Positions 3,147-42,747 of a DNA stretch of 43,655 nt are shown in pieces; position 1 is the first letter of the stretch, and every line of letters begins with the position of its first letter. The notes beneath the pieces are model-generated. The model was not told the origin of the DNA. It searched no databases and saw nothing but the letters and a program-made list of their open reading frames with translations. Both the position numbers and the translations under genes were made by a program. The stretch comes from a phage, in NCBI GenBank assembly GCA_029093185.1, contig GCA_029093185.1_4348.1, one strand, 5' to 3'.

Positions 3147-3175
3147 ACTATAATAGCTAACTATTCAGGTGTCAA
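3147..3175 (-). promoter_or_regulatory. Sigma70-type promoter with embedded operator palindrome
   Basis: Minus strand TTGACA (rc of 3170-3175), 17-nt spacer, TATAGT (rc of 3147-3152); spacer contains TAATAG-CTAA-CTATTC. Confidence 0.6.
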
Positions 3176-3364: not shown

Positions 3365-4602
3365 TCTAAATCCTCCTCTGTTACCCTATTCCACTCAGGA
3401 CGTTTGTCGTCTGCCGTTGCAACACATGGTGCGCCTGGCTTACGGGTAATGAAGTCTTTCAGTTCTTCTTCCGGTATGACTTTAACCGCTTCGGTTGGCG
3501 TCATGAGCACTTGCTTCATTAGCGCTATGCCATACTTGCCAGCCACTTTCTCTGCGTCTTTCCACGCACGATTGCCCGGGCGGCCCTCAACCAGCTTGTA
3601 CCCCGGCACTTTCTTACCGGAATGCAACGCGGTGGCCATCGCTTTCTCAACCTTGTCGATGTGCTGGCGCAACAACGGCAACTTCTCATATTCAGCTACG
3701 AGTTGCTCCGGCGTAAGTTCCAGCGCAAAGTCGTCCTCCAGTTCTTCCGCCAGTACAGAGTTAACGGTTTTTGTACGCGCGGCACACTGTTCAGAGAACC
3801 GACACCACTGACAACCATCTACAGACGGCTTGAAATCAGATGCTTTCAGGTTCTTCTTACCGCGGAAATACGCATCAAGCGCCAACAGTGCACGTTTCTT
3901 GGCAAACTTAGCGAACAGTTCCAGACCTTCAACCGAGATGTCCCACTCCGACGCACCGCCAGCGTACGGCTGGAAGATGACCAGGCGCACTACTGTGATG
4001 TTATAACGTCTCTTGAGTCGGCGATAAACACCGAGAGCGTAAAGCATAAGCTGCTTGTTTTCTTTCGCTTCGACGCGATGCCGCCCGGTTTTCAGGTCGC
4101 CGATAATGAGCATGTGCTCGTCGGTGTTTGCCAGTTCCTGTACAGCAACGAGGTCAGCGGTTCCGAACGTCTCAACGCCTTCATACCCCGGATGCAATAC
4201 CTCAGTAAGATTGACACGCATTTCCAGCTTGGCGTAAGTCGCTACGTCTATAATCGCTTTGCAGTAGTCGGTGTACTTGCGCACCTGCTCAATCATGTCC
4301 GCCGTAATCAGTACCGCGCCTTTCATCGGGCTGATTAGCGCCTTAATCTGACCTTTACCCTCATCCAGCACGTAAGCACCGACTTCACGTTCTAACGGCA
4401 GCGCAGTGCCACGGATATGAGCGTTGAGATGGACCTCGGCTATGGTGTGACACGCGGTCCCCGTAACAGCAGCTTTACCGGACGTGTTAGGAATATCTTT
4501 TTCACAGGCCAGTGATGCACTGCACGCCAGCCACTTTTTGGCGCCAGACGGCGACAGTAAGGCGTGCACATCGTTATTGCCACCGCGTTCTTTTAGAATC
4601 AT
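3361..4602 (-). CDS. Cas4/RecB-like PD-(D/E)xK exonuclease (DUF2800-like) with probable 4Fe-4S cysteines
   Basis: 413 aa; RecB-family motifs IIGDLKTG and QLMLYALG; N-terminal Cys pair (WLACSASLAC) plus C-terminal CQWCRFSEQC; C-terminus ends VTEEDLE. Confidence 0.7.
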   Translation of the reverse strand: MILKERGGNNDVHALLSPSGAKKWLACSASLACEKDIPNTSGKAAVTGTACHTIAEVHLNAHIRGTALPLEREVGAYVLDEGKGQIKALISPMKGAVLITADMIEQVRKYTDYCKAIIDVATYAKLEMRVNLTEVLHPGYEGVETFGTADLVAVQELANTDEHMLIIGDLKTGRHRVEAKENKQLMLYALGVYRRLKRRYNITVVRLVIFQPYAGGASEWDISVEGLELFAKFAKKRALLALDAYFRGKKNLKASDFKPSVDGCQWCRFSEQCAARTKTVNSVLAEELEDDFALELTPEQLVAEYEKLPLLRQHIDKVEKAMATALHSGKKVPGYKLVEGRPGNRAWKDAEKVAGKYGIALMKQVLMTPTEAVKVIPEEELKDFITRKPGAPCVATADDKRPEWNRVTEEDLE

Positions 4603-4961
4603 CGTAAACTCTCCAAATACAAGTTTAATGCCTGTAGCTGTTCTTCTGTGGGAATGAAAGAATCATCGCGACGTAAGTCGCTTAACTGTTGCAGCATTCC
4701 TGCGAACTTACGTCTTGCGTCAACAGCGACAATGTGATGCTTTTCACTTTTATATATTAAGGTTTTCGGGTAATCCTCAATCCTGCCAGACGATTTATTC
4801 ACGCGGAGTGCGCGATCTTCATGCGCAATGTGTATGTACTTTTTGCCGTTTTGTAGCACAGTAGCTACACCGCTGTTCTTTCTGCGGTCGCCGACGGTGT
4901 AAACTTTGTCGCCGCTGCGCAAATTAAGCCACCATTTATCAGTCATACCCTGTTCTCCCAC
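4599..4961 (-). CDS. Hypothetical protein
   Basis: 120-aa ORF, 4-bp overlap with the downstream gene; no recognisable motif. Confidence 0.5.
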   Translation of the reverse strand: MGEQGMTDKWWLNLRSGDKVYTVGDRRKNSGVATVLQNGKKYIHIAHEDRALRVNKSSGRIEDYPKTLIYKSEKHHIVAVDARRKFAGMLQQLSDLRRDDSFIPTEEQLQALNLYLESLR

Positions 4962-5215
4962 TGGTCAATTAAATGCCGTGTCTTGTGGTCGCAATGTAAG
5001 GCCCATCCATACATCGACTCGAAGACATAAAAGTCAGGCTTGGCGAAAGTTGTGCGCTTAATCTGTGACACGTGACGGCCTATATCTTTAGGCCGTGGTA
5101 CTTTTCCTAAGTACGCCATCTCTTCCATCTGGTGCGCACCGGACGGAGCACGCAATAGCCATAGCGCCTCTGTGTTATCCCGCCTGTCGACGGCTCGGTA
5201 GAGTTGGTAAATCAT
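4943..5215 (-). CDS. Hypothetical protein
   Basis: 90-aa ORF in the operon; contains HCDHKTRH, a possible metal-binding patch. Confidence 0.45.
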   Translation of the reverse strand: MIYQLYRAVDRRDNTEALWLLRAPSGAHQMEEMAYLGKVPRPKDIGRHVSQIKRTTFAKPDFYVFESMYGWALHCDHKTRHLIDQWENRV

Positions 5216-5227
5216 AATTCCGACCCT

Positions 5228-5251
5228 CAGTTAAAGCGGCCCGAAGGCCGC
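5228..5251 (-). terminator. Intra-operon hairpin, possible attenuator/terminator
   Basis: GCGGCC / GGCCGC stem with 4-nt loop (5236-5251); T-rich tract follows on the minus strand. Confidence 0.35.
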
Positions 5252-5258
5252 GAGATAG

Positions 5259-5759
5259 TTATTCTTCTTCGAAATACTTGTTCTTGATTGCTGTCAGGCG
5301 TTCCAGGTATTCAGCCAGGTCTTCGTCTTTAATCGCTGCAATCTTCATTTTCTTACCTGTGAACTCTTCCAGCAGTTCATCAGAATCATCGCACGCGGCA
5401 TCGCTCGGACCTTCGTTAATTGCATCGTCGATAGCCTGAATCTGGTCGCGCAGAGACTTATAGTCTACTTCTTCTTTCTCTTCTTCCGGCTCTGGCGTCG
5501 TTTCCTCTACTTTAGCTTTACGCGGCTTGCGTTTTGGCTTCTCTTCCTCCGCCGGTTTAGTGTCAACTACGTCTTCACCTTCAACCGGGATTTCTTTTGT
5601 TGCTTCTTCAGCGCACTCAGCTACCGCTTCTTTGGTGTACGATACCGTCTCTACTTCCAGCGGCGTGGCAACCTGAACAACTTGTTTCGCACTGTTCGCG
5701 GCAATCAGTTCGTGCGCAACTACGAAACGTTCCAGTAATACTAAGAATTTCTCTAACAT
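5259..5759 (-). CDS. Highly acidic low-complexity protein
   Basis: 166 aa; central Glu/Lys/Pro-rich tract (EEEKPKRKPRKAKVEETTPEPEEEKEE) and acidic C-terminus. Confidence 0.55.
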   Translation of the reverse strand: MLEKFLVLLERFVVAHELIAANSAKQVVQVATPLEVETVSYTKEAVAECAEEATKEIPVEGEDVVDTKPAEEEKPKRKPRKAKVEETTPEPEEEKEEVDYKSLRDQIQAIDDAINEGPSDAACDDSDELLEEFTGKKMKIAAIKDEDLAEYLERLTAIKNKYFEEE

Positions 5760-5783
5760 TATTTATTCTCCTGTTTATTTGGG

Positions 5784-6011
5784 CTACTCGCCGTCGCCTT
5801 CTGTAAGGCTATCGTCTATTAATTCAAATTTACCGTTTGGGTGTTGAATAGCTTCTTGCCCGCAATGGTCGCAGACAACAAGTTTATCGAACCCATCAAA
5901 CTCATCCCCTACTACGCAAGAAAGTACAAATTTATGTTTTGTGCACACTTCTTGCGGAGCGCCGAAAATTGCTCGAAAACCTTTAGCTATGGCCCCAGTG
6001 ATTGTGTTCAT
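5784..6011 (-). CDS. Small zinc-ribbon protein
   Basis: 75 aa with CTKHK...C and CDHC cysteine/histidine pairs. Confidence 0.5.
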   Translation of the reverse strand: MNTITGAIAKGFRAIFGAPQEVCTKHKFVLSCVVGDEFDGFDKLVVCDHCGQEAIQHPNGKFELIDDSLTEGDGE

Positions 6012-6039
6012 ATCTGCCCCTCTCGTTTGGTATGGGCTA

Positions 6040-6068
6040 ACTATAATAGCGAACTATTCACATGTCAA
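6040..6068 (-). promoter_or_regulatory. Sigma70-type promoter with embedded operator palindrome
   Basis: Minus strand TTGACA (rc of 6063-6068), 17 nt, TATAGT (rc of 6040-6045); contains TAATAG-CGAA-CTATTC. A degenerate second copy (TAATAT-GGTA-CTATTC) lies at 6088-6107 just upstream of the XRE gene. Confidence 0.6.
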
Positions 6069-6132
6069 TGGGCTTTTCTAAAATAATTAATATGGTACTA
6101 TTCACATATCAACTGACTAAGGAGTAATTGAC

Positions 6133-6348
6133 ATGCAACCATCTGAACTAGGCATCCGTGTAGAACAACGCCGCAAAGAACTCGGCATCTCCCAGCGCCG
6201 TTTGGCGGCCCTGACCGGCGTTTCCCAGGGCGCGATTAACCAACTGGCACTTGGAGTAACTCAGGACGTCCGCCCGGCAACGCTGTTCAAACTGGCGGAA
6301 GTTCTGGAAGTAGACGCCAAGTGGCTGGCGTTAGGTGAAGGGGCTTAA
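6133..6348 (+). CDS. XRE-family (Cro/CI-like) helix-turn-helix regulator
   Basis: 71 aa; HTH signature ISQRRLAALTGVSQGAINQLALG; AAGGAG Shine-Dalgarno 9 nt upstream. Confidence 0.8.
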   Translation: MQPSELGIRVEQRRKELGISQRRLAALTGVSQGAINQLALGVTQDVRPATLFKLAEVLEVDAKWLALGEGA

Positions 6349-6364
6349 AGCCCCTTTCTTTTTA
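6338..6364 (+). terminator. Rho-independent terminator of the XRE gene
   Basis: Hairpin GGGGC-TTAAA-GCCCC whose loop contains the XRE stop codon, followed by TTTCTTTTT. Confidence 0.55.
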
Positions 6365-6365
6365 C

Positions 6366-8624
6366 CTATTCCAAATCCTCCTCTGTCACCACCAGCATCT
6401 CATTTGGTTCGTATAGTGTCTTCGGCCTTAATCTATCCCCTATTCTTTCGGGTATACGATATGTTCTCGGTACTACTTCGCCGTTAGCATCGCAACCAAG
6501 CATTAGTTCTCCATCTTTCAACATTTTATCAAGATGGGTGTTAGTCACAGAGAAGTCACCGGAACGAGCCACTATCTGCTGCTGAGTAAAACCGCGACCT
6601 GTGTCATCTGACTGTTGCAGGTCTTCCAGTGCCGAAAGTATTGACTCCTTCCTTACTTCATCCCTGCCGCGTTTAACTTCTTCCTTTACTTTTTGCTTAC
6701 CTTCTTTCGTCAACCCTTCTTCCCGCTCTTTCTCCTCGTCAGTTTTGAACGGCTCGAAACCCCACGGCATCAACACAAGCGCCTTGTGTGGTTCAGGCAG
6801 GTCCAGGTTTACGATTGTGCCGTATTCCTCTGTGCTACCCAGGAACTCAACCGCTCGGTATTCTTTAGGCGGCGGCGCTTCACGGAACTGTACCGACTCC
6901 AGCACCATGCCAACCGTCTTCTGCTGAGGCCCGTGCTTGAATTTCGAGTGATATACGTTTATCTGACGGTCGGTTGCACGTTCGATTGTCAGTTCCACGT
7001 CAACACCCGCATACAGCGCCCCACTGCCGCGTGCTTTCTTTCCACCCTTCGGCGTATGGTGGACAACGCCTACTGCGGCTTTAGTTGCATCGCGTACTTC
7101 TTTCAGAATGGCGATAACTTTACCCATGCCGATTGCTGTTGATGAACTGTTCTCGTCGAACTTATCAATCGTCAGGGCCAGCGTCTGGTTAAGGGTGTCG
7201 AAGGCAACCATGCCAATAGGTTCATCCCCTGCGGTTTCGCGCATCCTGCGGATTAGAGCTGGAATTTTTTTATCACCATGCGTAGCGAGTATTTCGCCCA
7301 TATCGATGACATGTACATAATCTTTACCTTCCTCGCCATATTTAGCCGCGAGTGCATCAATACGTGTTCGTGTAGCTGCACCACCCTCGCCGTCAATATA
7401 GAAATGGTGGCAACGTTGGGTGTCAGCCCCCGCAAACCGGTACCCGGCGGCGCTCAGGTACATCATCCCCAGCGTATAGAATGATTTGTACGTGCCGGAT
7501 TCCCCGACAATATCCCAGATACAATCCGACGGCATGTACCCCTCAACGACGAAATCAGCCTTTACCGGTTCTGGTAACTCGTCCTCCTCTGAGTCCTCGT
7601 CGTCTTCCAGGTCGTCGAGGCTGCATGAGACAGATTCACGCGCCCCCCAACCGATGGCCTCTGCGACTTCACTGAACGGCAGCCCGGTCGCATCGCACGC
7701 GTACTTCCACACCTCTTTCGGTGACAGGCCTTCTGTCGCCGTAATGTCTGTGTCGTGAATCATGGTTACGTTTGGCGCTTCATACCCCTCGCGCGGGAAG
7801 CACAGCAGGAAGTCGTCCGGGCGCGGTGTCGGGTCGCTGTAGTTTTCGGCATGTTCCGGTGTGGCTGGCATCTTAAGGCCGCGCGGCGTCATGACGCCGC
7901 CGTACTCAAACGCCAGTGCTTCAAACGCGTCTGTAAACGCGGTGCGCAGTTCTTCCGGTATCTGGTAATCCGATGCGCTGCTAACGTCAACGGCTGGGAT
8001 GCCTTCCAGTAACTCGTTCGGGTCGATCAGGTCGTTGCGGCGCGACCAGATAACGGTAGCGCCGACCGGCGGCAGGTACATCGGCTGCGACAGAGTGAAC
8101 CCGCTGCGGTCCGCACCCATGCCTTTGAAGAAGTGCTCCAGCAACCCATGACGAACACGGATGATGTCACCACCCTCCACCGGACGGGCCAGTGGCATTA
8201 CGACGCGAAAGCGCGGTGACTCATCAGTATGTGATGCCGTGGTATAGAGGCACATGGCCCAGCGGCTGCGCTTAACCAGGCGCACCGCTTCCTGATACTC
8301 TTCCGGTGTTGTGCTGTCGAAATCCAGATAGGCCAGCGACGATTTGCTTACAGACGCATCGCAGCGGTAGAAAAAACCTTTACGCGCTTGCTTAAAGTCT
8401 CCAGTTTCCGGGTCTTTTACGGTGCTGTGCGTTGAGTCGCACGCGGCGGTGATATAACCGGGCGCGGTCTTAGGGTTAATCCCGTCGCGAACGGCATCGA
8501 GCGGCTGGATTAACTCTTTCAGGTCGTCCAGTGTTGCCGTGTGTGCGGTTCTGACATTTATATCCTTTTTTCCCGCCCGCGCGTTGCGGCGTGACCACGA
8601 GTAGGATAAAATTACATCGGACAT
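6366..8624 (-). CDS. DNA primase/helicase (RecA-like AAA_25-type ATPase with N-terminal primase-like domain)
   Basis: 752 aa; Walker A GESGTYKS; VGVVHHTPKGG motif typical of RepA/AAA_25 helicases; C-terminus ends VVTEEDLE. Confidence 0.65.
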   Translation of the reverse strand: MSDVILSYSWSRRNARAGKKDINVRTAHTATLDDLKELIQPLDAVRDGINPKTAPGYITAACDSTHSTVKDPETGDFKQARKGFFYRCDASVSKSSLAYLDFDSTTPEEYQEAVRLVKRSRWAMCLYTTASHTDESPRFRVVMPLARPVEGGDIIRVRHGLLEHFFKGMGADRSGFTLSQPMYLPPVGATVIWSRRNDLIDPNELLEGIPAVDVSSASDYQIPEELRTAFTDAFEALAFEYGGVMTPRGLKMPATPEHAENYSDPTPRPDDFLLCFPREGYEAPNVTMIHDTDITATEGLSPKEVWKYACDATGLPFSEVAEAIGWGARESVSCSLDDLEDDEDSEEDELPEPVKADFVVEGYMPSDCIWDIVGESGTYKSFYTLGMMYLSAAGYRFAGADTQRCHHFYIDGEGGAATRTRIDALAAKYGEEGKDYVHVIDMGEILATHGDKKIPALIRRMRETAGDEPIGMVAFDTLNQTLALTIDKFDENSSSTAIGMGKVIAILKEVRDATKAAVGVVHHTPKGGKKARGSGALYAGVDVELTIERATDRQINVYHSKFKHGPQQKTVGMVLESVQFREAPPPKEYRAVEFLGSTEEYGTIVNLDLPEPHKALVLMPWGFEPFKTDEEKEREEGLTKEGKQKVKEEVKRGRDEVRKESILSALEDLQQSDDTGRGFTQQQIVARSGDFSVTNTHLDKMLKDGELMLGCDANGEVVPRTYRIPERIGDRLRPKTLYEPNEMLVVTEEDLE

Positions 8625-8681
8625 GTTGTATTTCCTTCAGCAAGTAATTTGGCCTCGGCGCTCTAACGCTGGGGCTTTCTT

Positions 8682-8915
8682 TTATTCCAGGTCTTCTAAA
8701 GTGGCTGTCACCCCACGAACTTCGGCAACAGCACTATATCTCCCGCCAACATTTTTCACGACACCAGATTTAACCAGCACCTTCAACGACCCTTCAATGA
8801 TGGCGGAACTATAGTACCTAAAATAACTGCGGCGCAAGTCCATAACGCTGCACGACCCTTTTTTACGTGTTACCGAAACAACCGCCGTAAATACGCGTGA
8901 CTGGAACTCGGTCAT
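8682..8915 (-). CDS. Hypothetical replication-associated protein
   Basis: 77 aa; C-terminus ends TLEDLE, matching the tails of the nuclease and primase-helicase. Confidence 0.5.
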   Translation of the reverse strand: MTEFQSRVFTAVVSVTRKKGSCSVMDLRRSYFRYYSSAIIEGSLKVLVKSGVVKNVGGRYSAVAEVRGVTATLEDLE

Positions 8916-9106
8916 TTTACATTCTCCTTAATCCACGCTTCTACTTTCTCCGGGTCGAACGTACCAGGCTGCCGGCGGCCCATAATACGGATACAACAAT
9001 CCGGGAACTTCCCACTCTTTAACCAGTTATTCAGCGTGCGACGAGTAACCCCGATACGCTCAGCTACCTCATTCTGTGTCATTCTCAAACCCTCATTATC
9101 AGTCAA
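8912..9106 (-). CDS. AlpA/excisionase-like HTH DNA-binding protein
   Basis: 64 aa; LRMTQNEVAERIGVTRRTLNNWLKSGKFP; first gene of the minus-strand operon. Confidence 0.6.
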   Translation of the reverse strand: MTDNEGLRMTQNEVAERIGVTRRTLNNWLKSGKFPDCCIRIMGRRQPGTFDPEKVEAWIKENVK

Positions 9107-9522
9107 CGAAACTTAGTATACATTGCGAATAATGGGAAATCAAACATAATCGCACCTATTGACATTATGAAAATCTTCGTTTAAGGTGCTTTTGTATCTT
9201 AGTTACTTTGATTCCTGTTCACCTTGTAAAACCGCTTAAAACGCAGCTGCGCGCAGCGCAAGCAAAGTGTTAAGCGAAAGTTTACTGAACATAAGAATTA
9301 TCGTAACTTTCCTTCCTAAGTATCTCCGGTTGCCCTGGGCAAGCTCTATTCTCATCGGCAGCATATCTCTTAAGTATCTGATTTTCTTAATGTGCCGTAG
9401 ATTCGCAACCGTAAAAATGTAACGATTATTGGGCAGGCTTAAGCCTGCCCTTTAGCTACCAAGTAATAAGAATAAAGGCACAACCCTCCCCGAAGAATCA
9501 CAACGGCAACGTAACTATTCTC

Positions 9523-9556
9523 TTGCACACCCCAACATAATAGGTTACTATTCACT
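9523..9556 (+). promoter_or_regulatory. Early promoter (TTGCAC-17-TACTAT) with operator palindrome
   Basis: TTGCAC 9523-9528, 17-nt spacer, TACTAT 9546-9551; TAATAG-GTTA-CTATTC overlaps the -10. Confidence 0.55.
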
Positions 9557-9585
9557 TATCGAAACGAGACATAAGGAATTTAGAA

Positions 9586-10120: not shown

Positions 10121-10278
10121 GAGAAGCATTCGAACGGTGGGCCGTCGTCGATGGTCTGCCGGTTAATAAGGGTTCGAAGAAAGAGTACCTGAACGTTAAG
10201 ACGCGTCTTGCGTGGCGGGCGTGGAAAGCTGGTGCGCAATATCGGGCCGGTGTAACAGGCGGTGTAACAGGTCAATAG
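10117..10278 (+). CDS. Hypothetical small protein (53 aa)
   Basis: ATG overlaps the upstream stop (ATGA); below the 60-aa cutoff of the ORF track, found by reading the frame. Confidence 0.35.
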   Translation: MREAFERWAVVDGLPVNKGSKKEYLNVKTRLAWRAWKAGAQYRAGVTGGVTGQ

Positions 10279-10426
10279 GTTACTATTTGTCTTTGTGTCT
10301 TACGCTGCTACACAGCAGCGTACAACTTTAACTTAGTGTCGTCAAAAGGCGACACTTCCATAAGACACTGTTGGGGCAGGGATAAAGTGTCCCCAGTTAG
10401 CGACACTAAGCACCAATAAAATTTAC

Positions 10427-10455
10427 TTGCACACTAGGATAGAATAGACTACTAT
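10427..10455 (+). promoter_or_regulatory. Internal early promoter with perfect GAATAG-N4-CTATTC palindrome
   Basis: TTGCAC 10427-10432, 17 nt, TACTAT 10450-10455; GAATAG-ACTA-CTATTC. Confidence 0.5.
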
Positions 10456-10486
10456 TCATTTACACGAACGAGAGGAGATACGGAAG

Positions 10487-13441: not shown

Positions 13442-13462
13442 TCTATTTTCTGCGATGACTAG

Positions 13463-13491
13463 TTGACTATTATCTATGACCATATTATATT
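13463..13491 (+). promoter_or_regulatory. Sigma70-like promoter
   Basis: TTGACT 13463-13468, 17-nt spacer, TATATT 13486-13491; immediately downstream of the terminator. Confidence 0.5.
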
Positions 13492-18664: not shown

Positions 18665-18687
18665 AGCCCCGAAAGGGGCTTTCTTAT
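18665..18687 (+). terminator. Terminator-like hairpin after the portal gene
   Basis: AGCCCC-GAAA-GGGGCT followed by TTCTT. Confidence 0.4.
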
Positions 18688-20461: not shown

Positions 20462-20488
20462 TTTTCACCTCCTGTTTAAGTTAACTGA

Positions 20489-20517
20489 ATAGTACCCTAT
20501 TATATTGGGGTGTGCAA
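20489..20517 (-). promoter_or_regulatory. Early-type promoter with operator palindrome driving the antisense moron
   Basis: Minus strand TTGCAC (rc of 20512-20517), 17 nt, TACTAT (rc of 20489-20494); TAATAG-GGTA-CTATTC. Confidence 0.55.
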
Positions 20518-20569: not shown

Positions 20570-20585
20570 AACTATTCGAATAGTT
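20570..20585. promoter_or_regulatory. Perfect 16-bp palindrome AACTATTCGAATAGTT
   Basis: Same half-sites (CTATTC/GAATAG) as the recurrent operator but abutting with no spacer; adjacent to a TTGACT hexamer. Confidence 0.4.
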
Positions 20586-20836
20586 GACTTTTCACTAAAA
20601 ATATGATAAGCTCCACCTGAGCTTGTGAAGTATGAACAAGCGACCGCGGCGCGGGCAGGTAACGGAGCGGGACGTAAGTCCTGAGTGTAGTTACGCTGAC
20701 GCGTTCGGAAGGGCCATACTCTATTGCTTGTGTAAAAAGTAACTGGTTTACTGAGATTACGCCGTTTCTATGTTTAAATGATAAGGACTAGCGCCCCGCT
20801 TTATGGCGGGGCTTTACTTATCGAGAAAGGGGAAAC

Positions 20837-27809: not shown

Positions 27810-27835
27810 AAGGCCCCGAAAGGGGCCTTTTTTAT
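27810..27835. terminator. Bidirectional rho-independent terminator
   Basis: AAGGCCCC-GAAA-GGGGCCTT followed by TTTTTTATT; also terminates the convergent antisense operon. Confidence 0.65.
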
Positions 27836-29584: not shown

Positions 29585-29612
29585 AATTATACCCTCAGTA
29601 AGTTACTGGTGA

Positions 29613-29641
29613 ATAGTACCCTATTATATTGGGGCGCGCAA
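29613..29641 (-). promoter_or_regulatory. Early-type promoter with operator palindrome driving the antisense moron operon
   Basis: Minus strand TTGCGC (rc of 29636-29641), 17 nt, TACTAT (rc of 29613-29618); TAATAG-GGTA-CTATTC; a 24-bp identity with the promoter at 20487-20510. Confidence 0.55.
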
Positions 29642-34235: not shown

Positions 34236-34751
34236 ATGAGCCAGGAATCTGTAGAAGCCGCCTATCGCCGTAAGCTGGCCTCAAATCCCGACGGCGAGAT
34301 GGACTACATCACGTTGCAAATCAGCCACCCGTTGTTGTCAAAGACGTACTATCTTGTTCGTGGGCTACAGGAACTCACGGCAACACTGGAGACAGGCGAA
34401 ATTATCACGTTCGAGCCAACCCCGATGGAGGCGTCGGGGGCGGCTAACAACAGTGATATGGACCAGACGACTACGTTTACTTTACCGGATATTCTCAATC
34501 AACTTGACGATGAGATGGATAAAATCCCTATGAGTAACACCGAGTTGCCGAAGTTCGTCTTCCGTCGTTACGTCAGCACAGACCTGTCTTATCCGGCTGA
34601 CGGTCCTGTCATGTATGAGTTGCAGGCCATCAACCAGGAGAAGGGCGAGTTCTCCGCGGATGTTGGTACACCTATGCTGAACCAGCGAAGCACTGGTATA
34701 CTGATGACACCTAAAGAGATACCGTTATTACGCGGCCTGTTGACCACATGA
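34236..34751 (+). CDS. Minor tail protein
   Basis: 171-aa ORF in the tail-tip cluster. Confidence 0.45.
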   Translation: MSQESVEAAYRRKLASNPDGEMDYITLQISHPLLSKTYYLVRGLQELTATLETGEIITFEPTPMEASGAANNSDMDQTTTFTLPDILNQLDDEMDKIPMSNTELPKFVFRRYVSTDLSYPADGPVMYELQAINQEKGEFSADVGTPMLNQRSTGILMTPKEIPLLRGLLTT

Positions 34752-35113
34752 ATATTAACGACTACACGGGCATACCTTACGACTTTCGCAAGCGCAATTG
34801 CTGGCATCACGTTCGCATTGTACGGGCCGATGCCGGGTTAGAAACCCCGGCGTTCGACGTTACAAGCCCAACGGCGATTAACGAAGCGTTCGACGAAGGC
34901 CATCGTGACACGAAGGGGCTTACAAAAATTGATAAGCCTGAAAACTTCTGTGCGGTTCTTATGGGGTATCGCCGTGGCGGTCGTATCGTGTGGCACGCGG
35001 GAGTTTACTTCGACGGGATGGTGAGTCATTGCGAGCTTGCGTCCCGTCAGGTACGGCTTGACAGGCTGGCGGATCTCAGAGACACGTACACGGAGATTGA
35101 ATTTTGGCGATAA
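34748..35113 (+). CDS. Tail protein with NlpC/P60-like Cys-His motif (lambda gpK-like)
   Basis: 121 aa; RNCWHHV...HAGVYFDGMVSHC. Confidence 0.4.
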   Translation: MNINDYTGIPYDFRKRNCWHHVRIVRADAGLETPAFDVTSPTAINEAFDEGHRDTKGLTKIDKPENFCAVLMGYRRGGRIVWHAGVYFDGMVSHCELASRQVRLDRLADLRDTYTEIEFWR

Positions 35114-37671
35114 TCCTGCACTACACGCGAAACGCTGATGGCGCTTTCAACCGTACAAAACACGTCGGGATGCCGATGGAGTTTGTCGTTAACCGTATCC
35201 CGGACGGCGTTCCGGTACGCGTCTATCTTGGCGAGATTGGTGATGATACTGATGTTACAGACGACTTCGACGCGCTCAAAGACGAGGACGCCGTGTACCA
35301 CATTATTGAGGGCGCTGGCGGCGGCATTGGCGACGCCATCGGGAGTGTATTCAGTTTCATCCTTAAGCCAATCGCCAAATTGTTCGGGCTAAACACAGCG
35401 GCTAACGCTAATTATTCCGCTACCAACAATCAGGCTACGTCGCCTAACAACAGTCTCACCGACCGCTCAAACAAGCCACGACCTTATGAGCGTTCCTATG
35501 ATATCTGCGGGACAGTGCAGACCATCCCCAATGACCTGATGCAGACATATAAGGTGTTTAATGCCGCGGGTGCGCTTATTGAATATGCGTACTATGACGC
35601 CGGTCGAGGGTATCTGCATATTGAGGAAGACGGTGTAACTGAGGCAGATACCCGAATCAGCGAGATAACTGGCTCGTCGGTGACGGTGTATTCTCCTTAC
35701 ACTTCGCCGAATAACACCAGCACACCACAATTGCATATCGGCGACCCTATAGACCAGAAATTGTACGTTACATTTAAAATCGCCGATGTCGATGGCGCTG
35801 TTCTTCCCGCCCCTAATGATATCGCTATAGACGTGCAGGACTACACTGTCCAGCGGCAGGGAACAACCGGCGTTGTAGTAGGCGATGACGCTGGTTTCGA
35901 TGAGTTTTTGGCGGTCGGGGACCTGGCATACTTCGATAACGTATATGCAGATACAACCCCAGGGTCTTTGGGTAATGAGGTTAACCTGGACGGGAGGTAC
36001 ACGGTTCTTTCGGTTAGTGAAACCACCCTTATTGTGGACGTCAGTACAAATCAATCAGTATGGAACCAGCTAGGGGCGTCTGTGTGGTTTATAGGTGAAG
36101 AGGGTAACCATCTTATAGGCCCGGCGGACACTTACGCGGCTTCTCTCTCTGAATGGGCGTACATCACCCGCGGTACTGTCGACCGTGTTGTAGCCAATGT
36201 CGCCGCCAGCAACGGCATGTATAAATACAACGGCGACTATAACCGCGCTTCAGTGACAGTGGAACTGCAATACCAGATGGTTGATGAGCTGAAACAGCCT
36301 GTAGGTGATATATTTACTGTACAAGGAACCGTAACAGGCCGGAACACGGATTACACAGGTATTACTCTTTACGGAAGTTTACCAACTGCTTCCAGATTCC
36401 GCGCCCGTATGCGTCGTGTTTCCGACACCGATAAAGATTTTGAAGGTACTGTTAGTGATGAGGTTACTTTCACTAATCTGTACGGGCAGTCTCTGGACAC
36501 AACCCCACACTACGGCAACAGAACCACCGTACACTGCGCTCGTAAACAAACGCCACGTGCCGCGGAGGTGTCAGAACCGGAACTACGCATGATAGCAACC
36601 GAGATGTGTTACAAATACTTAGGTAACGGCATATTCGATACTGTAATGACCACAAATACTCAGGCGGTGCAGTCGCTAATCAGACTGGCCCGTGACCCGG
36701 CGGTAGGTAACTTAGAACTGACAACCGCAAACATGGACAAGTTACTCGCTGTGCAGGAAGAAATTGAGTCCTATTTCGGCAGTGAATTAGCGGGACAATT
36801 CTGCTACACGTTCGACGACTACGACACCACGATGCAGGACATCGTTCAGACTATAGCGGAAGCCGTGTTCTGTACTGCGTACCGTAAAGGTGCGGATATT
36901 ATGCTGCGATTCGACCGTCCGGTTGCTGGGCCTGAGATGGTGTTCACCCACCGCAGCAAAACTACTGGTACAGAGAAATGGACGCGCACGTTCAACGATT
37001 CGACAACCTATGATAGCCTGTCGTTCTCATACATCGACCCGGATACTAACGTACAGGAAACGATTTATATCCCGGAAGAACTCGGAGCAAACACCGAGGA
37101 ATATGAATCGAAGGGCGTACGTAACTATCAGCAGGCATATTGGCTGGCGTGGCGTCGCTACCAGCGCAACGCGTTAAGTAAAGTTGTCGTAGAGTTCGAA
37201 GCTACCGAAGAGGGGGCACTCGCTACACCGGGCGGCGTAATCAGCGTGGTTAAAGGCTCACGCATCGCGCCGCAGGATGGTTATGTTGTTGCCGTTAACG
37301 GGCTTACGCTTACGCTGTCTCAGCCAGTTACGTTTACCCCCGGAGACGACCACTCCATCATCCTCAAGAAGCGCGATGGCTCTGTGCAGAGTATCTCGGT
37401 TATCAAAGGAAGCCACGACCGCGAGGTGATTATGCTCTCCGCGCCGGAAGAAGCAATCTACACGGGGAATAGCGCGCTAAAAACTGAGTTTTCATTCGGC
37501 AACGAAGCAAGGCATAATGCTCAGAAGATAGTTGTTTCTTCAATCGACCCCGGCGACGACCGCACGGTCAAGATTACGGGCTACAACTATGATGACGGAT
37601 TCTATAAATACGACGGCGTCGCGCCATACGGCAGCGGTTTCTCCGACGGATTCAGCAATGGTTTTAATTAA
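35104..37671 (+). CDS. Tail tip / central tail fiber protein (host-specificity-like)
   Basis: 855 aa; TTG start with GGAGA Shine-Dalgarno (an internal ATG at 35170 is the alternative); C-terminus GFSDGFSNGFN. Confidence 0.5.
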   Translation: MAIILHYTRNADGAFNRTKHVGMPMEFVVNRIPDGVPVRVYLGEIGDDTDVTDDFDALKDEDAVYHIIEGAGGGIGDAIGSVFSFILKPIAKLFGLNTAANANYSATNNQATSPNNSLTDRSNKPRPYERSYDICGTVQTIPNDLMQTYKVFNAAGALIEYAYYDAGRGYLHIEEDGVTEADTRISEITGSSVTVYSPYTSPNNTSTPQLHIGDPIDQKLYVTFKIADVDGAVLPAPNDIAIDVQDYTVQRQGTTGVVVGDDAGFDEFLAVGDLAYFDNVYADTTPGSLGNEVNLDGRYTVLSVSETTLIVDVSTNQSVWNQLGASVWFIGEEGNHLIGPADTYAASLSEWAYITRGTVDRVVANVAASNGMYKYNGDYNRASVTVELQYQMVDELKQPVGDIFTVQGTVTGRNTDYTGITLYGSLPTASRFRARMRRVSDTDKDFEGTVSDEVTFTNLYGQSLDTTPHYGNRTTVHCARKQTPRAAEVSEPELRMIATEMCYKYLGNGIFDTVMTTNTQAVQSLIRLARDPAVGNLELTTANMDKLLAVQEEIESYFGSELAGQFCYTFDDYDTTMQDIVQTIAEAVFCTAYRKGADIMLRFDRPVAGPEMVFTHRSKTTGTEKWTRTFNDSTTYDSLSFSYIDPDTNVQETIYIPEELGANTEEYESKGVRNYQQAYWLAWRRYQRNALSKVVVEFEATEEGALATPGGVISVVKGSRIAPQDGYVVAVNGLTLTLSQPVTFTPGDDHSIILKKRDGSVQSISVIKGSHDREVIMLSAPEEAIYTGNSALKTEFSFGNEARHNAQKIVVSSIDPGDDRTVKITGYNYDDGFYKYDGVAPYGSGFSDGFSNGFN

Positions 37672-39868: not shown

Positions 39869-39892
39869 AAGGCCCCAAACGGGGCCTTTTCT
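39869..39892. terminator. Bidirectional rho-independent terminator
   Basis: AAGGCCCC-AAAC-GGGGCCTT followed by TTTTCT; ends both the late plus-strand operon and the convergent minus-strand operon. Confidence 0.65.
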
Positions 39893-40030: not shown

Positions 40031-41451
40031 TTCTTACCTCGTCTCTTCATGTAATTAAGCAACTCTTCCTGGACCGATTTCTTCTCGTCCGTACGCGCCG
40101 CAACAACCTCATCCAGCGTGTCTTTAGCAACGATGTGATAGAGGAACACCGGGCGCTCGTGGCCCGCCTGTTTCTGACGGACCGGGCCTATACGCTCGAC
40201 AACCTGCAAATAGTGCTCAAGGTTCCAGCCTTGTGAGATGAATGCCAGATGATGTCCGCCGTCTTGTAAATTCAAACCATGGCCCGCTGACGCAGGATGT
40301 ACGCATAAGATTTCTACTTCACCGCGGTTCCACGCTTCCATCTGCTTATTACCCCTGGCACCTTTGGCAAAGGCCTGTGCTTGTGGGAATCGCTTAAGGA
40401 TGCGCTCCAGTTCGTGCTTGAACTGATAGGCCACCAGTAACGGTGCCCCCTGTAACTCCTCAACAATGGACTCGAGCGCATCAAGTTTCGTGTCGTGCAC
40501 TTTCTCCCATTCTTTGGTTGATTCGCCATCTGGCCCCGATACATACACGGCACCGGAGGCAATCTGTAGGCACTTCGACGTCTTCGCCGCAGCGTTAGCC
40601 GCTTCAACTTCTCCGCTTTCCAGTTCCGCGAATAACTTCTCCTCCATATCGATGTACGCCTGACGTGCTTTCTTCGGCAGGTCGATTTCAACCGGCACAA
40701 TAATCGGCGCTTCACACCCGAACCACTCGGCGGCGTCAATCGTGAGACTAATGTCCTTCATCTTCTGGTGAATTTCATTATCCGCACCCGGGCGTGCGTG
40801 GTATTCACGGGCCATCGCAGATTTCCCTTTCTGTACCGAGTTAAACCAGCGGTCGGTGAATGCTGTGTACGATGACCCCAGGCGCTCGCCTGCGTCGATA
40901 AACCAGTTCTGCCCCCACAAGTCCTTGAGGCCGTTTGGTGACGGCGTGCCAGTCAGGTTAATGAAACGCTTAACTTTGCCAAATGCCACTTTACTAAGCG
41001 CCTTTGCCCTCTTGCTGCCGCCTGAACGGCTGCGGAATGACTTCAGTTTCGTGCTTTCATCGGCGACGATAACCGTAAAAGGCCAGTCGTCTTTGCCGTA
41101 GTAGTCAATAAGCCACTCGATAACTTCGTAGTTCGTGCACACCACGTTAGCATCTGACTCCAGCGCCGCGATGCGGCGCTTCTCCAAACCAGTCGCATCG
41201 ACGACACGCAGACACGGGAAACCCCACTTAGTTTGTTCAGCAGGCCATGTGCCGGACGCAACACGCAACGGGGCGAGGATTAACACACGGTCCTCTTCCG
41301 TAAGCTTCCCGTTGCGGAACAAGCGGTTTAGCACCCACATAGTGGAGGAGGTTTTACCCCCTCCCATGCCGCACCAGATATTACAGCGTGGATGCTGCAG
41401 CATGAACGAAGTCATGAGCTTTTGGTACTCACGCCTTTGAAACTTACTCAT
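40027..41451 (-). CDS. SNF2-family ATPase/helicase
   Basis: 474 aa; Walker A GMGGGKTS, DExx box VIVADES, LTGTPSPN motif. Confidence 0.7.
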   Translation of the reverse strand: MSKFQRREYQKLMTSFMLQHPRCNIWCGMGGGKTSSTMWVLNRLFRNGKLTEEDRVLILAPLRVASGTWPAEQTKWGFPCLRVVDATGLEKRRIAALESDANVVCTNYEVIEWLIDYYGKDDWPFTVIVADESTKLKSFRSRSGGSKRAKALSKVAFGKVKRFINLTGTPSPNGLKDLWGQNWFIDAGERLGSSYTAFTDRWFNSVQKGKSAMAREYHARPGADNEIHQKMKDISLTIDAAEWFGCEAPIIVPVEIDLPKKARQAYIDMEEKLFAELESGEVEAANAAAKTSKCLQIASGAVYVSGPDGESTKEWEKVHDTKLDALESIVEELQGAPLLVAYQFKHELERILKRFPQAQAFAKGARGNKQMEAWNRGEVEILCVHPASAGHGLNLQDGGHHLAFISQGWNLEHYLQVVERIGPVRQKQAGHERPVFLYHIVAKDTLDEVVAARTDEKKSVQEELLNYMKRRGKK

Positions 41452-42241
41452 TTACTGCCCCCATGAACGCCTTTATAAATTCAGCGGCTACTTGCGGGAC
41501 GATGGCATTGCCGTAACCGCGCAATCGTCCCACTCTTGCGGATACCCCATGAGTTGCCTCGCAAAATCCGCCTGGTATGACTCTAGTTTCCTTATCTGCT
41601 CCATGGTTGGGTTTCCATGAATCCCATAAACATGAAGCCACATCTGGCGATAAAGAGTATCGTTCCTGAATTTTCCGTCCTTTCTGTAAAATGTCTTGCT
41701 GAGATCCCCGTAATCCTTCCATCCTCGCGCCGTTGGTGTCGCCCATCCTCGCGCCAAAGATGATTCTTTTCCTTTCCTGTGGAGAGCCGACGCTGCAAGC
41801 TGGCAATACTGACGCCCCGCAGGCGTAGCCTTTGTCTTCCAGGTTAAGGAATACAAAATCGAGCCAGTGCTTCCCAATTGCTGCTGCAACCTGCTCTCCA
41901 AACAGCAATTCAGGCTTGCACTCTCTGATGAGCCTGAGAAATGCTGGGGCAAGGTGTCGATCGTCGTCAAATCCGAGAGACTTACCGGCAACGCTAAACG
42001 GCTGGCAAGGTGGTGATCCTGTCCAGAGTCGAGTGCTTTCTGGTATTCCTGCCAGCTGGAGTGCAAGGGGCCACCCTCCGATTCCGGCAAAGAAGTGACA
42101 CTGTGTAAATCCTTCCAGGTCTGAAGGGGTGACTTCGGTGATTGATCGTTCATCGACATATCCGTAAGGAATTAGTTTATTGTTAATTAATTCACGCAGC
42201 CACGCGGCTGCGCCTTTATCCCATTCGTTGTAATAGTTCAT
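41444..42241 (-). CDS. Orphan DNA cytosine-5 methyltransferase
   Basis: 265 aa; motif I FFAGIGGW, motif IV SPPCQPFS, FGEQV (ENV-like), C-terminal GNAIVPQVA; no adjacent restriction endonuclease. Confidence 0.75.
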   Translation of the reverse strand: MNYYNEWDKGAAAWLRELINNKLIPYGYVDERSITEVTPSDLEGFTQCHFFAGIGGWPLALQLAGIPESTRLWTGSPPCQPFSVAGKSLGFDDDRHLAPAFLRLIRECKPELLFGEQVAAAIGKHWLDFVFLNLEDKGYACGASVLPACSVGSPQERKRIIFGARMGDTNGARMEGLRGSQQDILQKGRKIQERYSLSPDVASCLWDSWKPNHGADKETRVIPGGFCEATHGVSARVGRLRGYGNAIVPQVAAEFIKAFMGAVNE

Positions 42242-42459: not shown

Positions 42460-42747
42460 CTAACTATAATAGTTCGCTATTAGGTCGTCAACCTGTTTAA
42501 ACGAACCAACGACAAAAACATTTGCACCACGTTTACGCATCCGCTCGTGCTCTCGTATCTGGTGCGGGTCTGGCTTCGTGTTTTCGTCTTTCTTAACCTC
42601 GACGAACCAGACGATGCCGCCGGGGAGAATTACCAGCAGGTCGGGGGCGCCGGAGCGCCCCTCATAAGACAGCTTACGAACGAGGCCACCAATGGCCTCG
42701 AATCGCTCTTTTGCGTATTTCTGGATGCACCCCTCAGGCGTACTCAT
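42460..42747 (-). CDS. VRR-NUC domain nuclease
   Basis: 95 aa; PD-(D/E)xK-type pattern GAPDLLVIL...VEVKK. Confidence 0.6.
   Translation of the reverse strand: MSTPEGCIQKYAKERFEAIGGLVRKLSYEGRSGAPDLLVILPGGIVWFVEVKKDENTKPDPHQIREHERMRKRGANVFVVGSFKQVDDLIANYYS
42463..42491 (-). promoter_or_regulatory. Sigma70-type promoter with embedded operator palindrome
   Basis: Minus strand TTGACG (rc of 42486-42491), 17 nt, TATAGT (rc of 42463-42468); TAATAG-TTCG-CTATTA. Confidence 0.55.

Follow-up and report, generated by a model that had tools for sequence, protein, structure and literature searches.

The DNA analysed here, a stretch of 43,655 nucleotides (contig GCA_029093185.1_4348.1 of NCBI GenBank assembly GCA_029093185.1; hereafter the window), is the complete, circularly permuted genome of a Kagunavirus (Guernseyvirinae), a small virulent siphophage of E. 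coli. A short plus-strand gene of this phage was found to encode a regulator of the XRE family with a helix-turn-helix (HTH) domain, and a 14-bp palindrome, AATAG-N4-CTATT, was found to recur in sigma-70-like promoters along the window. We consider the regulator to be, probably, an autoregulated Cro-type repressor of most of the phage promoters, which would serve this strictly virulent siphophage as a general transcription brake and not as a lysogeny gene.

The regulator and its genome

The product of the regulator gene matched Pfam HTH_3 (PF01381) with 49.7 bits against a cut-off of 23 (E 3.9e-13, residues 11-65). The best sequence match in a phmmer search of the PDB was phage 434 Cro (E 8.5e-6, residues 6-68), followed by the DNA-binding domain of the 434 repressor. 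The same two proteins were recovered from structure: an AlphaFold2 model with five helices (residues 5-17, 21-28, 32-39, 48-57 and 62-66; mean predicted local distance difference test score, pLDDT, 77) had 2cro as its top Foldseek match in the PDB (template modelling score 0.70-0.75, 40% identity), and the 434 repressor domain came next. The 71 amino acids show the predicted five-helix, single-domain fold of the 434 Cro type and are too few to include a further C-terminal domain for oligomerisation or of the S24 peptidase type. Judged by sequence and model, the regulator is a 434-Cro-type single-domain HTH protein.

In 37 related metagenomic loci the protein was 78-100% identical to that of the window, and the DNA carried many synonymous changes. 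Calculated over 657 pairs drawn from the window and the 36 loci with at least 93% identity, the mean rate of nonsynonymous substitution (dN) was 0.014 and that of synonymous substitution (dS) 0.269, giving a dN/dS of 0.05 and indicating strong purifying selection. The recognition helix (helix 3) was invariant in the related metagenomic loci save for one G33S variant, and the Shine-Dalgarno sequence of the gene varied in one of its six columns, by a single call, among 36 distinct relatives. A full-length copy of the regulator was found by tblastn in 534 of the 537 matching phage records. Homologues in a collection of 5.8 billion proteins were close relatives only (77-97% identity), on phage-sized contigs, and offered no additional genomic context.

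Positions 5000-9500 of the window matched Escherichia phage Bas73 over their full length at 94.9% identity, hundreds of further Kagunavirus and Jerseyvirus records also matched, and the gene order of the window agreed with that of annotated relatives. Pfam scans of the large open reading frames (ORFs) of the window and the full annotation of the 95%-identical Bas73 gave replication, lysis, packaging and structural functions only; an integrase, a CI-type repressor, and partition or plasmid-maintenance genes were not found in either. An Rfam scan of the entire window gave zero matches. Kagunavirus-type phages are described as strictly lytic in publications (PMC11990801, PMC9787291, PMC12919940). 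The first-pass annotation, made by a model from the letters of the DNA, had proposed a plus-strand Cro/CI-like HTH gene in a phage without integrase, and both points held, the first through the HTH_3 match, the 71-residue ORF and the low dN/dS, the second across the complete genome. It had also preferred a lytic-cycle regulator over a lysogeny repressor, which fits a single domain aligning end to end with 434 Cro and the lack of integrase and CI genes.

Five more specific identities were tried and rejected. As DicA (NCBIfam NF007257) the regulator scored 40.3 bits against a cut-off of 101, and only positions 2-68 of the 135 in the profile were matched. A CI-type lysogeny repressor does not agree with 71 residues consisting of an HTH domain only, in a genome that lacks integrase. 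A type II antitoxin of the HipB/HigA-like XRE kind would need a co-directional neighbour; the gene has none, being monocistronic with its own terminator. A restriction-modification controller (C) protein would be expected next to an endonuclease gene, and none is adjacent here, the methylase gene being distant. Nor is the regulator a lambdoid Cro in the genetic sense: its divergent neighbour is a 75-residue ORF heading the exonuclease-SSB-polymerase genes, and there is no CI gene. The temperate-type Hafnia phage Meifeng has a homologue, 44% identical, in the classical Cro position, where it faces a 226-residue HTH regulator and lies upstream of replication genes.

The GenBank labels given to the regulator vary between 'transcriptional repressor DicA', 'repressor', 'transcriptional regulator cro' and 'hypothetical protein'. 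In Bas73 (PQ850603, 7134-7349, identical ORF) and in K1G (GU196277, 33428-33640) the ORF is intact yet unannotated, and the Bas73 record calls instead a 96-nt ORF on the opposite strand inside the regulator gene.

A search for prophage copies through about 185,000 bacterial and archaeal genomes found none; its matches were one probable phage contaminant and four archaeal genes for unrelated XRE proteins. The former is scaffold22 of the Bacteroidota assembly of Taishania pollutisoli (NZ_JACVEL010000022.1, 19 kb), whose regulator is 48% identical to that of the window, the level seen in Jerseyvirus; this scaffold is likely phage contamination and not a prophage.

A palindrome in the phage promoters

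Among palindromes of the 5+5 type, AATAG-N4-CTATT was the most frequent in the window: it had 8 perfect copies, against 3 for the runners-up, which are terminator stems. With up to one mismatch allowed there were 13 copies (8 perfect and 5 with one mismatch) as compared to 1.1 expected, and none of 100 shuffles reached 13. Eleven of the 13 sites lay between genes or on the final few codons of an ORF upstream, and ten of these overlapped the spacer, the -10 or the -35 of a sigma-70-like promoter (Table 1). The two others were one-mismatch copies, at 36762 inside a tail gene, which fits the chance expectation, and at 18685, just after a terminator and outside the classes described next.

The promoter sites fell into three registers. 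In class A (3152, 6045 and 42468) the palindrome fills the spacer of TTGAC(A/G)-17-TATAGT promoters of three minus-strand replication and DNA-metabolism units. In class B (9539, 10443, 20488, 29612 and 6089) it lies over the spacer and the -10 of TTGC(A/G)C-17-TACTAT, and in class C (13458 and 20579) the palindrome is imperfect and has its centre on the -35, TTGACT, of promoters leading into the late packaging and head operons. As an element needed by RNA polymerase itself would keep one register, the three registers point to a separate operator module, and a protein bound at any of the three positions would occlude the polymerase. The first-pass annotation had noticed operator palindromes upstream of the regulator gene, and two are indeed present there; the presence of the same palindrome in about ten promoters genome-wide, which is the more informative feature, had escaped it.

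Table 1. Positions in the window of the regulator gene, its signals, the palindromic sites and the neighbouring genes, with the orthologous sites in Jerseyvirus SE2
Feature	Position	Strand	Description	SE2 site
Regulator gene (XRE/HTH_3)	6133-6348	+	ATG start, 71 amino acids, 434-Cro-like single domain	
Shine-Dalgarno sequence AAGGAG	6119-6124	+	8 nt before the regulator ATG, read from sequence	
O1 (class A)	6045-6058		perfect palindrome AATAG-CGAA-CTATT; TAATAGCGAACTATTC at 6044-6059	
O2 (class B)	6089-6102		imperfect palindrome AATAT-GGTA-CTATT, one arm mismatch; TAATATGGTACTATTC at 6088-6103	
Sigma-70-type promoter TTGACA-17-TATAGT	6068-6040	-	11/12 consensus; O1 exactly in spacer	
Regulator candidate promoter 1, TTCACA-16-TAAAAT	6057-6084	+	10/12, consensus match only; start region under O2	
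Regulator candidate promoter 2, TTTTCT-17-TACTAT	6074-6102	+	class B type, -10 inside O2; inferred from the sequence and from SE2	
Class A site	3152-3165		perfect; spacer of TTGACA-17-TATAGT (3175-3147, -), upstream of SSB and DNA polymerase genes	
Class A site	42468-42481		perfect; spacer of TTGACG-17-TATAGT (-), upstream of small ORF, C5-methylase and SNF2 helicase	2246
Class B site	9539-9552		perfect; spacer/-10 of TTGCAC-17-TACTAT (+), upstream of early small genes from 9586	
Class B site	10443-10456		perfect; upstream of genes from 10487	12965
Class B site	20488-20501		perfect; minus-strand promoter for small minus-strand gene	
Class B site	29612-29625		perfect; minus-strand promoter for 29584-28062 (108-residue protein, metallophosphoesterase/DNA-repair exonuclease)	33752
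Class C site	13458-13471		ACTAG-TTGA-CTATT on -35 of TTGACT-17-TATATT, upstream of operon to terminase and head genes	15716
Class C site	20579-20592		AATAG-TTGA-CTTTT over TTGACT -35, upstream of spanin and head genes	
Unclassed perfect palindrome	10274-10287		no clear -35; absent from K1G and Bas73	
Intrinsic terminator	6337-6363	+	GAAGGGGCT-TAA-AGCCCCTTT (6337-6357), 9-bp stem, T-run TTTCTTTTT to 6363	
Helicase-primase gene	6366-8624	-	AAA_25 domain; annotated replicative helicase-primase in relatives; convergent with regulator	
HTH_17 gene (excisionase/MerR-like)	8912-9106	-	64 amino acids, heads helicase-primase operon; PADLOC 'mad1' match E 3e-10	

Two of the sites, O1 and O2, lie in the 121-bp gap (6012-6132) that separates the regulator from divergent minus-strand genes. 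O1 overlaps the -35 of candidate promoter 1 of the regulator, and O2, 44 bp downstream of O1, covers the -10 and start region of the regulator's own promoter. The counterpart of candidate promoter 2 in Jerseyvirus SE2 is a clear TTGCGT-17-TACTAT. The minus-strand promoter around O1 was well conserved in the 36 sequences, with an invariant -35 and one minority call in the -10. It precedes a unit running from 6011 to about 3161, with small ORFs, a ProQ-C-like protein and a DUF2800 exonuclease. Beginning with the 75-residue ORF (5784-6011), the minus-strand genes on this side of the regulator continue to the DUF2800/PD-(D/E)XK exonuclease, an Enc34-type SSB and a DNA polymerase, and the SSB and polymerase genes have a further minus-strand promoter, at 3175. 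The HTH_17 gene, a gene for a 77-residue protein and the helicase-primase gene form a minus-strand unit that is read from upstream of 9106. With separate starts upstream of 9106 and at 6068, the minus-strand 'replication operon' therefore comprises at least two units. The earlier description of the regulator as encoded antisense inside the replication operon stood in so far as the gene lies between minus-strand genes; it overlooked that two such units exist, the second of which is divergent from the regulator. Rather than an antisense insert, the gene is best described as one side of a divergent promoter hub.

The sites were conserved in a manner that differed between arms and spacers. O1 and O2 have 20 arm positions in total, none of which varied among 36 distinct Kagunavirus sequences, whereas variation was seen in the flanks and at three of the four positions of the O1 spacer. 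The single mismatch of O2 (AATAT) was fixed in 37 of 37 related loci. Of 31 loci extending as far as the site at the SSB promoter (3152), 30 had it with perfect arms, around six different spacers; the site was also present in K1G, Bas73 and SE2. K1G and Bas73 kept the sites at orthologous promoters with differing spacers and with the imperfections of the class C sites (13458 and 20579) unchanged. Every copy with up to one mismatch in K1G sat at such an orthologous promoter, with no stray copies; the site at 20488 was present in Bas73 and absent from K1G. In Jerseyvirus SE2, whose regulator is 48% identical to that of the window, TAATAG-N4-CTATTA was found at 6-7 orthologous promoters in the same class A, B and C architecture. 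Constant arms around changing spacers are the signature predicted for a dimer-binding site.

Based on these observations, host RNA polymerase would transcribe the regulator gene from its own sigma-70-type promoter, and a regulator dimer would bind the palindrome inside the core of most phage promoters. Three registers would be bound: the spacer of three strong minus-strand replication promoters, the one carrying O1 being divergent from the regulator; the -10 of the early plus-strand promoters and of two minus-strand promoters; and, as a third set, the conserved imperfect sites, of which O2 covers the promoter of the regulator itself and the others the -35 of two promoters of late operons. The accumulating regulator would damp early and replication transcription first, and promoters with imperfect sites, its own included, would shut down only at higher concentration, which would constitute negative autoregulation. 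The hairpin terminator would make the gene a monocistronic cassette and keep its transcript from running antisense into the helicase-primase gene. We infer that the XRE protein is the binder of the motif, that its binding represses, and that the promoters are shut off in this order. A wider version of this model is tentative: one 71-residue Cro-type protein may govern the entire sigma-70 programme of a virulent phage, with graded operator affinity (perfect sites at early and replication promoters, conserved imperfect sites at its own and late promoters) setting the temporal order without a phage sigma factor, RNA polymerase or antiterminator, and this arrangement may be common to the Guernseyvirinae.

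Two other functions of the sites were considered and rejected. The sequence CTATTCACA occurs in the same orientation at 6054-6062 and 6098-6106, near replication genes, and matches the DnaA box TTATNCACA in 8 of 9 positions; this was rejected as the main explanation, as the CACA flank of O1 varies among relatives, and is probably a coincidence. Activation of the MerR type, from a site within the promoter spacer, was rejected because the spacers are of the optimal 17 bp and not of 19-20 bp.

The probable binding protein and alternative explanations

The weakest link of the proposed model is which protein binds the palindrome. We favour the XRE regulator as binder and repressor of the palindrome regulon, and think this likely on balance. 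Proteins of the 434 Cro type bind 14-bp palindromes as dimers, O1 and O2 flank the regulator's own promoter, and paired sites in such a position are typical of autoregulation. The regulator was found in all three genera compared (Kagunavirus, Jerseyvirus and Cornellvirus).

Several findings weigh against this assignment and against the model as a whole. The HTH_17 proteins of Kagunavirus and Jerseyvirus share 84% identity, and neither of the Cornellviruses VSiA and SE1 has an HTH_17 protein. The palindrome is identical in Kagunavirus and Jerseyvirus though helix 3 of the regulator differs beyond its first residues (VSQGAINQL and VSQSLITHL, respectively). On distribution alone, HTH_17 thus fits the exact motif at least as well as the XRE regulator does. 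In VSiA and SE1 the regulator is about 41% identical, with VTQSAISHL as helix 3. These phages have 0 and 2 copies, respectively, of AATAG-N4-CTATT at up to one mismatch, and each has six copies of a related palindrome, TA(A/T)TA-N6-TA(A/T)TA, as compared to about 1 expected. The copies in VSiA map to orthologous promoters, including a class C-like site centred on the -35. This co-change of helix 3 and half-site is suggestive but not decisive, because the Cornellvirus palindromes are degenerate and modestly enriched. In addition, all the promoters are consensus matches, the AlphaFold2 model is of only moderate confidence, and three of the class B sites are not fully independent, as they lie within a repeated cassette of about 32 bp.

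That another phage protein, most plausibly HTH_17, binds the palindrome, with the XRE gene being one target or having a purely local role, appears unlikely. It would suit the distribution just described, and the XRE proteins of the two genera with the common motif are only 48% identical. However, 434 Cro and the 434 repressor are only moderately similar in sequence and yet use common operators, and a shared site is thus compatible with 48% identity. A related palindrome stands at orthologous promoters in Cornellvirus, which lacks HTH_17, and the pair of sites at the XRE gene's own promoter speaks for autoregulation. We saw no palindrome adjoining the candidate HTH_17/helicase-primase promoter at 9143-9115, and we know of no dimerisation module in excisionase-type HTH proteins of 64 residues. 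As an alternative target of HTH_17, iterons or an origin were looked for in the non-coding stretch 9107-9585, with no convincing repeats. The stretch, some 480 bp separating the HTH_17 gene from the first early gene on the plus strand, is without a convincing ORF and contains a perfect 10+10 hairpin at 9431-9450; an origin or a non-coding RNA could lie in it.

The palindromes might also not be protein sites at all, and represent duplicated promoter cassettes with an A/T-rich, by chance symmetric, -10-like sequence, which we regard as improbable. The cassette TTGC(A/G)C(A/G)CCCCAA(C/T)ATAATAGG(T/G)TACTATTCA occurs three times in nearly identical form (9523-9554 on the plus strand, 20517-20486 and 29641-29610 on the minus strand), and the right arm CTATT is part of the -10, TACTAT. 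However, the class A palindrome lies in the spacer and that of class C is centred on the -35. The left arm of the class B sites is invariant though it has no role in sigma-70 recognition, and arms are kept while spacers vary both across the 36 sequences and across genera.

The first-pass annotation had pointed to transcription converging on the replication operon, which would allow interference, and such interference (in either direction) or antisense control as the main mode of action seems distinctly improbable. The convergence itself is present in the window. The helicase-primase stop codon (6366-6368) is 3 nt from the end of the regulator's terminator, and 17 nt separate the two stop codons. 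The hairpin with the regulator's stop codon in its loop (TAA, 6346-6348), abutting the 3' end of the primase-helicase gene, was correctly recognised in that annotation. In the plus-strand reading a G+C-rich 9-bp stem is followed by TTTCTTTTT, as in an intrinsic terminator, and the centroid structure has -13.8 kcal/mol. Since this terminator is canonical, the regulator transcript should stop before the helicase-primase gene. In the minus-strand reading only UU and no U tract follows the stem, and helicase-primase transcripts may for this reason read through antisense to the regulator. The terminator of SE2, GGGGCC-TGAT-GGCCCC, shows a change on both sides of the stem and again has the stop codon (TGA) in the loop.

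The convergent layout is not conserved in the subfamily. VSiA, a Cornellvirus, has a regulator with a terminator of its own and, after it on the same strand, the helicase-primase gene; in the Cornellvirus SE1 the helicase-primase operon begins with the regulator gene. Other DNA lies between the regulator and the helicase-primase gene in K1G and several metagenomic relatives. The helicase-primase block has opposite orientations relative to the regulator in the window (6366-9106) and in VSiA (34354-37005) and SE1 (4112-7002). The feature that stays constant across the layouts is the divergence of the regulator from the exonuclease-SSB-polymerase genes, and the 'antisense embedding' thus goes back to the helicase-primase block being inverted between the Kagunavirus/Jerseyvirus and Cornellvirus lineages. 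As the convergent layout is missing in VSiA and SE1, transcriptional interference cannot be a conserved mechanism and is at most a lineage-specific extra; it also leaves the ten other sites unexplained.

A leftover or working CI-like immunity repressor, giving pseudolysogeny or a carrier state without integration, or a superinfection block, is very improbable: many GenBank records do say 'transcriptional repressor', 'repressor' or 'DicA', and sites on most promoters might in principle allow a repressor to silence the genome as a whole, but the protein lacks a C-terminal oligomerisation or S24 peptidase domain and falls below the DicA cut-off (40 bits against 101), the genome lacks integrase, partition and plasmid-maintenance genes, the scan of the roughly 185,000 bacterial and archaeal genomes found no prophage copies and gave a single close match that looks like phage contamination, and the phages are reported to be strictly lytic (PMC12919940, PMC9787291).

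Related systems and additional observations

The Cro-type repressor proposed here resembles several known regulators in part. Phage 434 Cro is its best match in sequence and structure, likewise a single-domain, five-helix HTH protein of 71 residues, and the 434 operator is a 14-bp palindrome of the same length and arm/spacer layout as AATAG-N4-CTATT. Unlike in phage 434, there is here no CI partner and no OR/OL switch, the half-site is AATAG instead of ACAA, the divergent partner is a replication operon, and the sites lie over about ten promoters and not in two operator clusters. Lambda Cro is an early small repressor that damps early promoters and its own synthesis in lytic growth, a turn-down role like that proposed for the regulator; it differs in being a winged helix with beta strands and part of a bistable switch in a temperate phage. 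P1 C1 and gp71 of mycobacteriophage L5, with its 'stoperators', are each one repressor acting on many dispersed sites at or near promoters. These are lysogeny-maintenance repressors of temperate phages with asymmetric sites, whereas the present phage is virulent and its sites symmetric. Restriction-modification C proteins such as C.AhdI, which were among the structural matches, share the XRE fold of about 70-80 residues and tandem palindromic operators upstream of their own gene. Unlike them, the regulator has no restriction endonuclease beside it, and the C5-methylase gene (41444-42241) is about 8 kb away across the circular junction. Virulent siphophages of Streptococcus thermophilus also carry a cro-like HTH gene without integrase or CI (PMC5338259). 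Those genes are unrelated to the regulator in sequence and host. To our knowledge no genome-wide operator set has been described for them.

A functional or transcriptomic study of the regulator or of the palindrome was not found in the searchable literature, which gave routine annotation only; the gene is already in public annotation, and its operator set and regulon appear to be undescribed. The mechanism proposed is ordinary, a textbook HTH repressor with palindromic operators overlapping promoters, and leaves current understanding unchallenged. Few phages are isolated, and put forward for therapy and biocontrol of E. coli and Salmonella, as often as the Guernseyvirinae (Kagunavirus and Jerseyvirus); in the routine screening of their genomes, 'repressor' genes are taken as a sign of lysogeny. 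Reading the gene as a Cro-type lytic regulator without lysogeny apparatus would remove a misleading lysogeny-type label from therapy phages. The map of promoters and operators is a concrete, testable model of transcription order in a small virulent siphophage that has no RNA polymerase of its own, and it offers about ten predicted repressible sigma-70 promoters with a cognate repressor for the engineering of these phages.

Some further features of the window were observed. A tandem repeat of GGTGTAACAGG precedes the unclassed palindrome (stretch 10248-10287). The 120-residue protein encoded at 4599-4961 on the minus strand, in the replication unit, scored 26.5 bits for a phage ProQ C-terminal-like domain, just under the cut-off of 27. 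Two hairpins at convergent gene boundaries (27810-27829 and 39869-39888) have common arms, AAGGCCCC and GGGGCCTT, around different loops, and T-rich sequence on both strands identifies them as bidirectional terminators.

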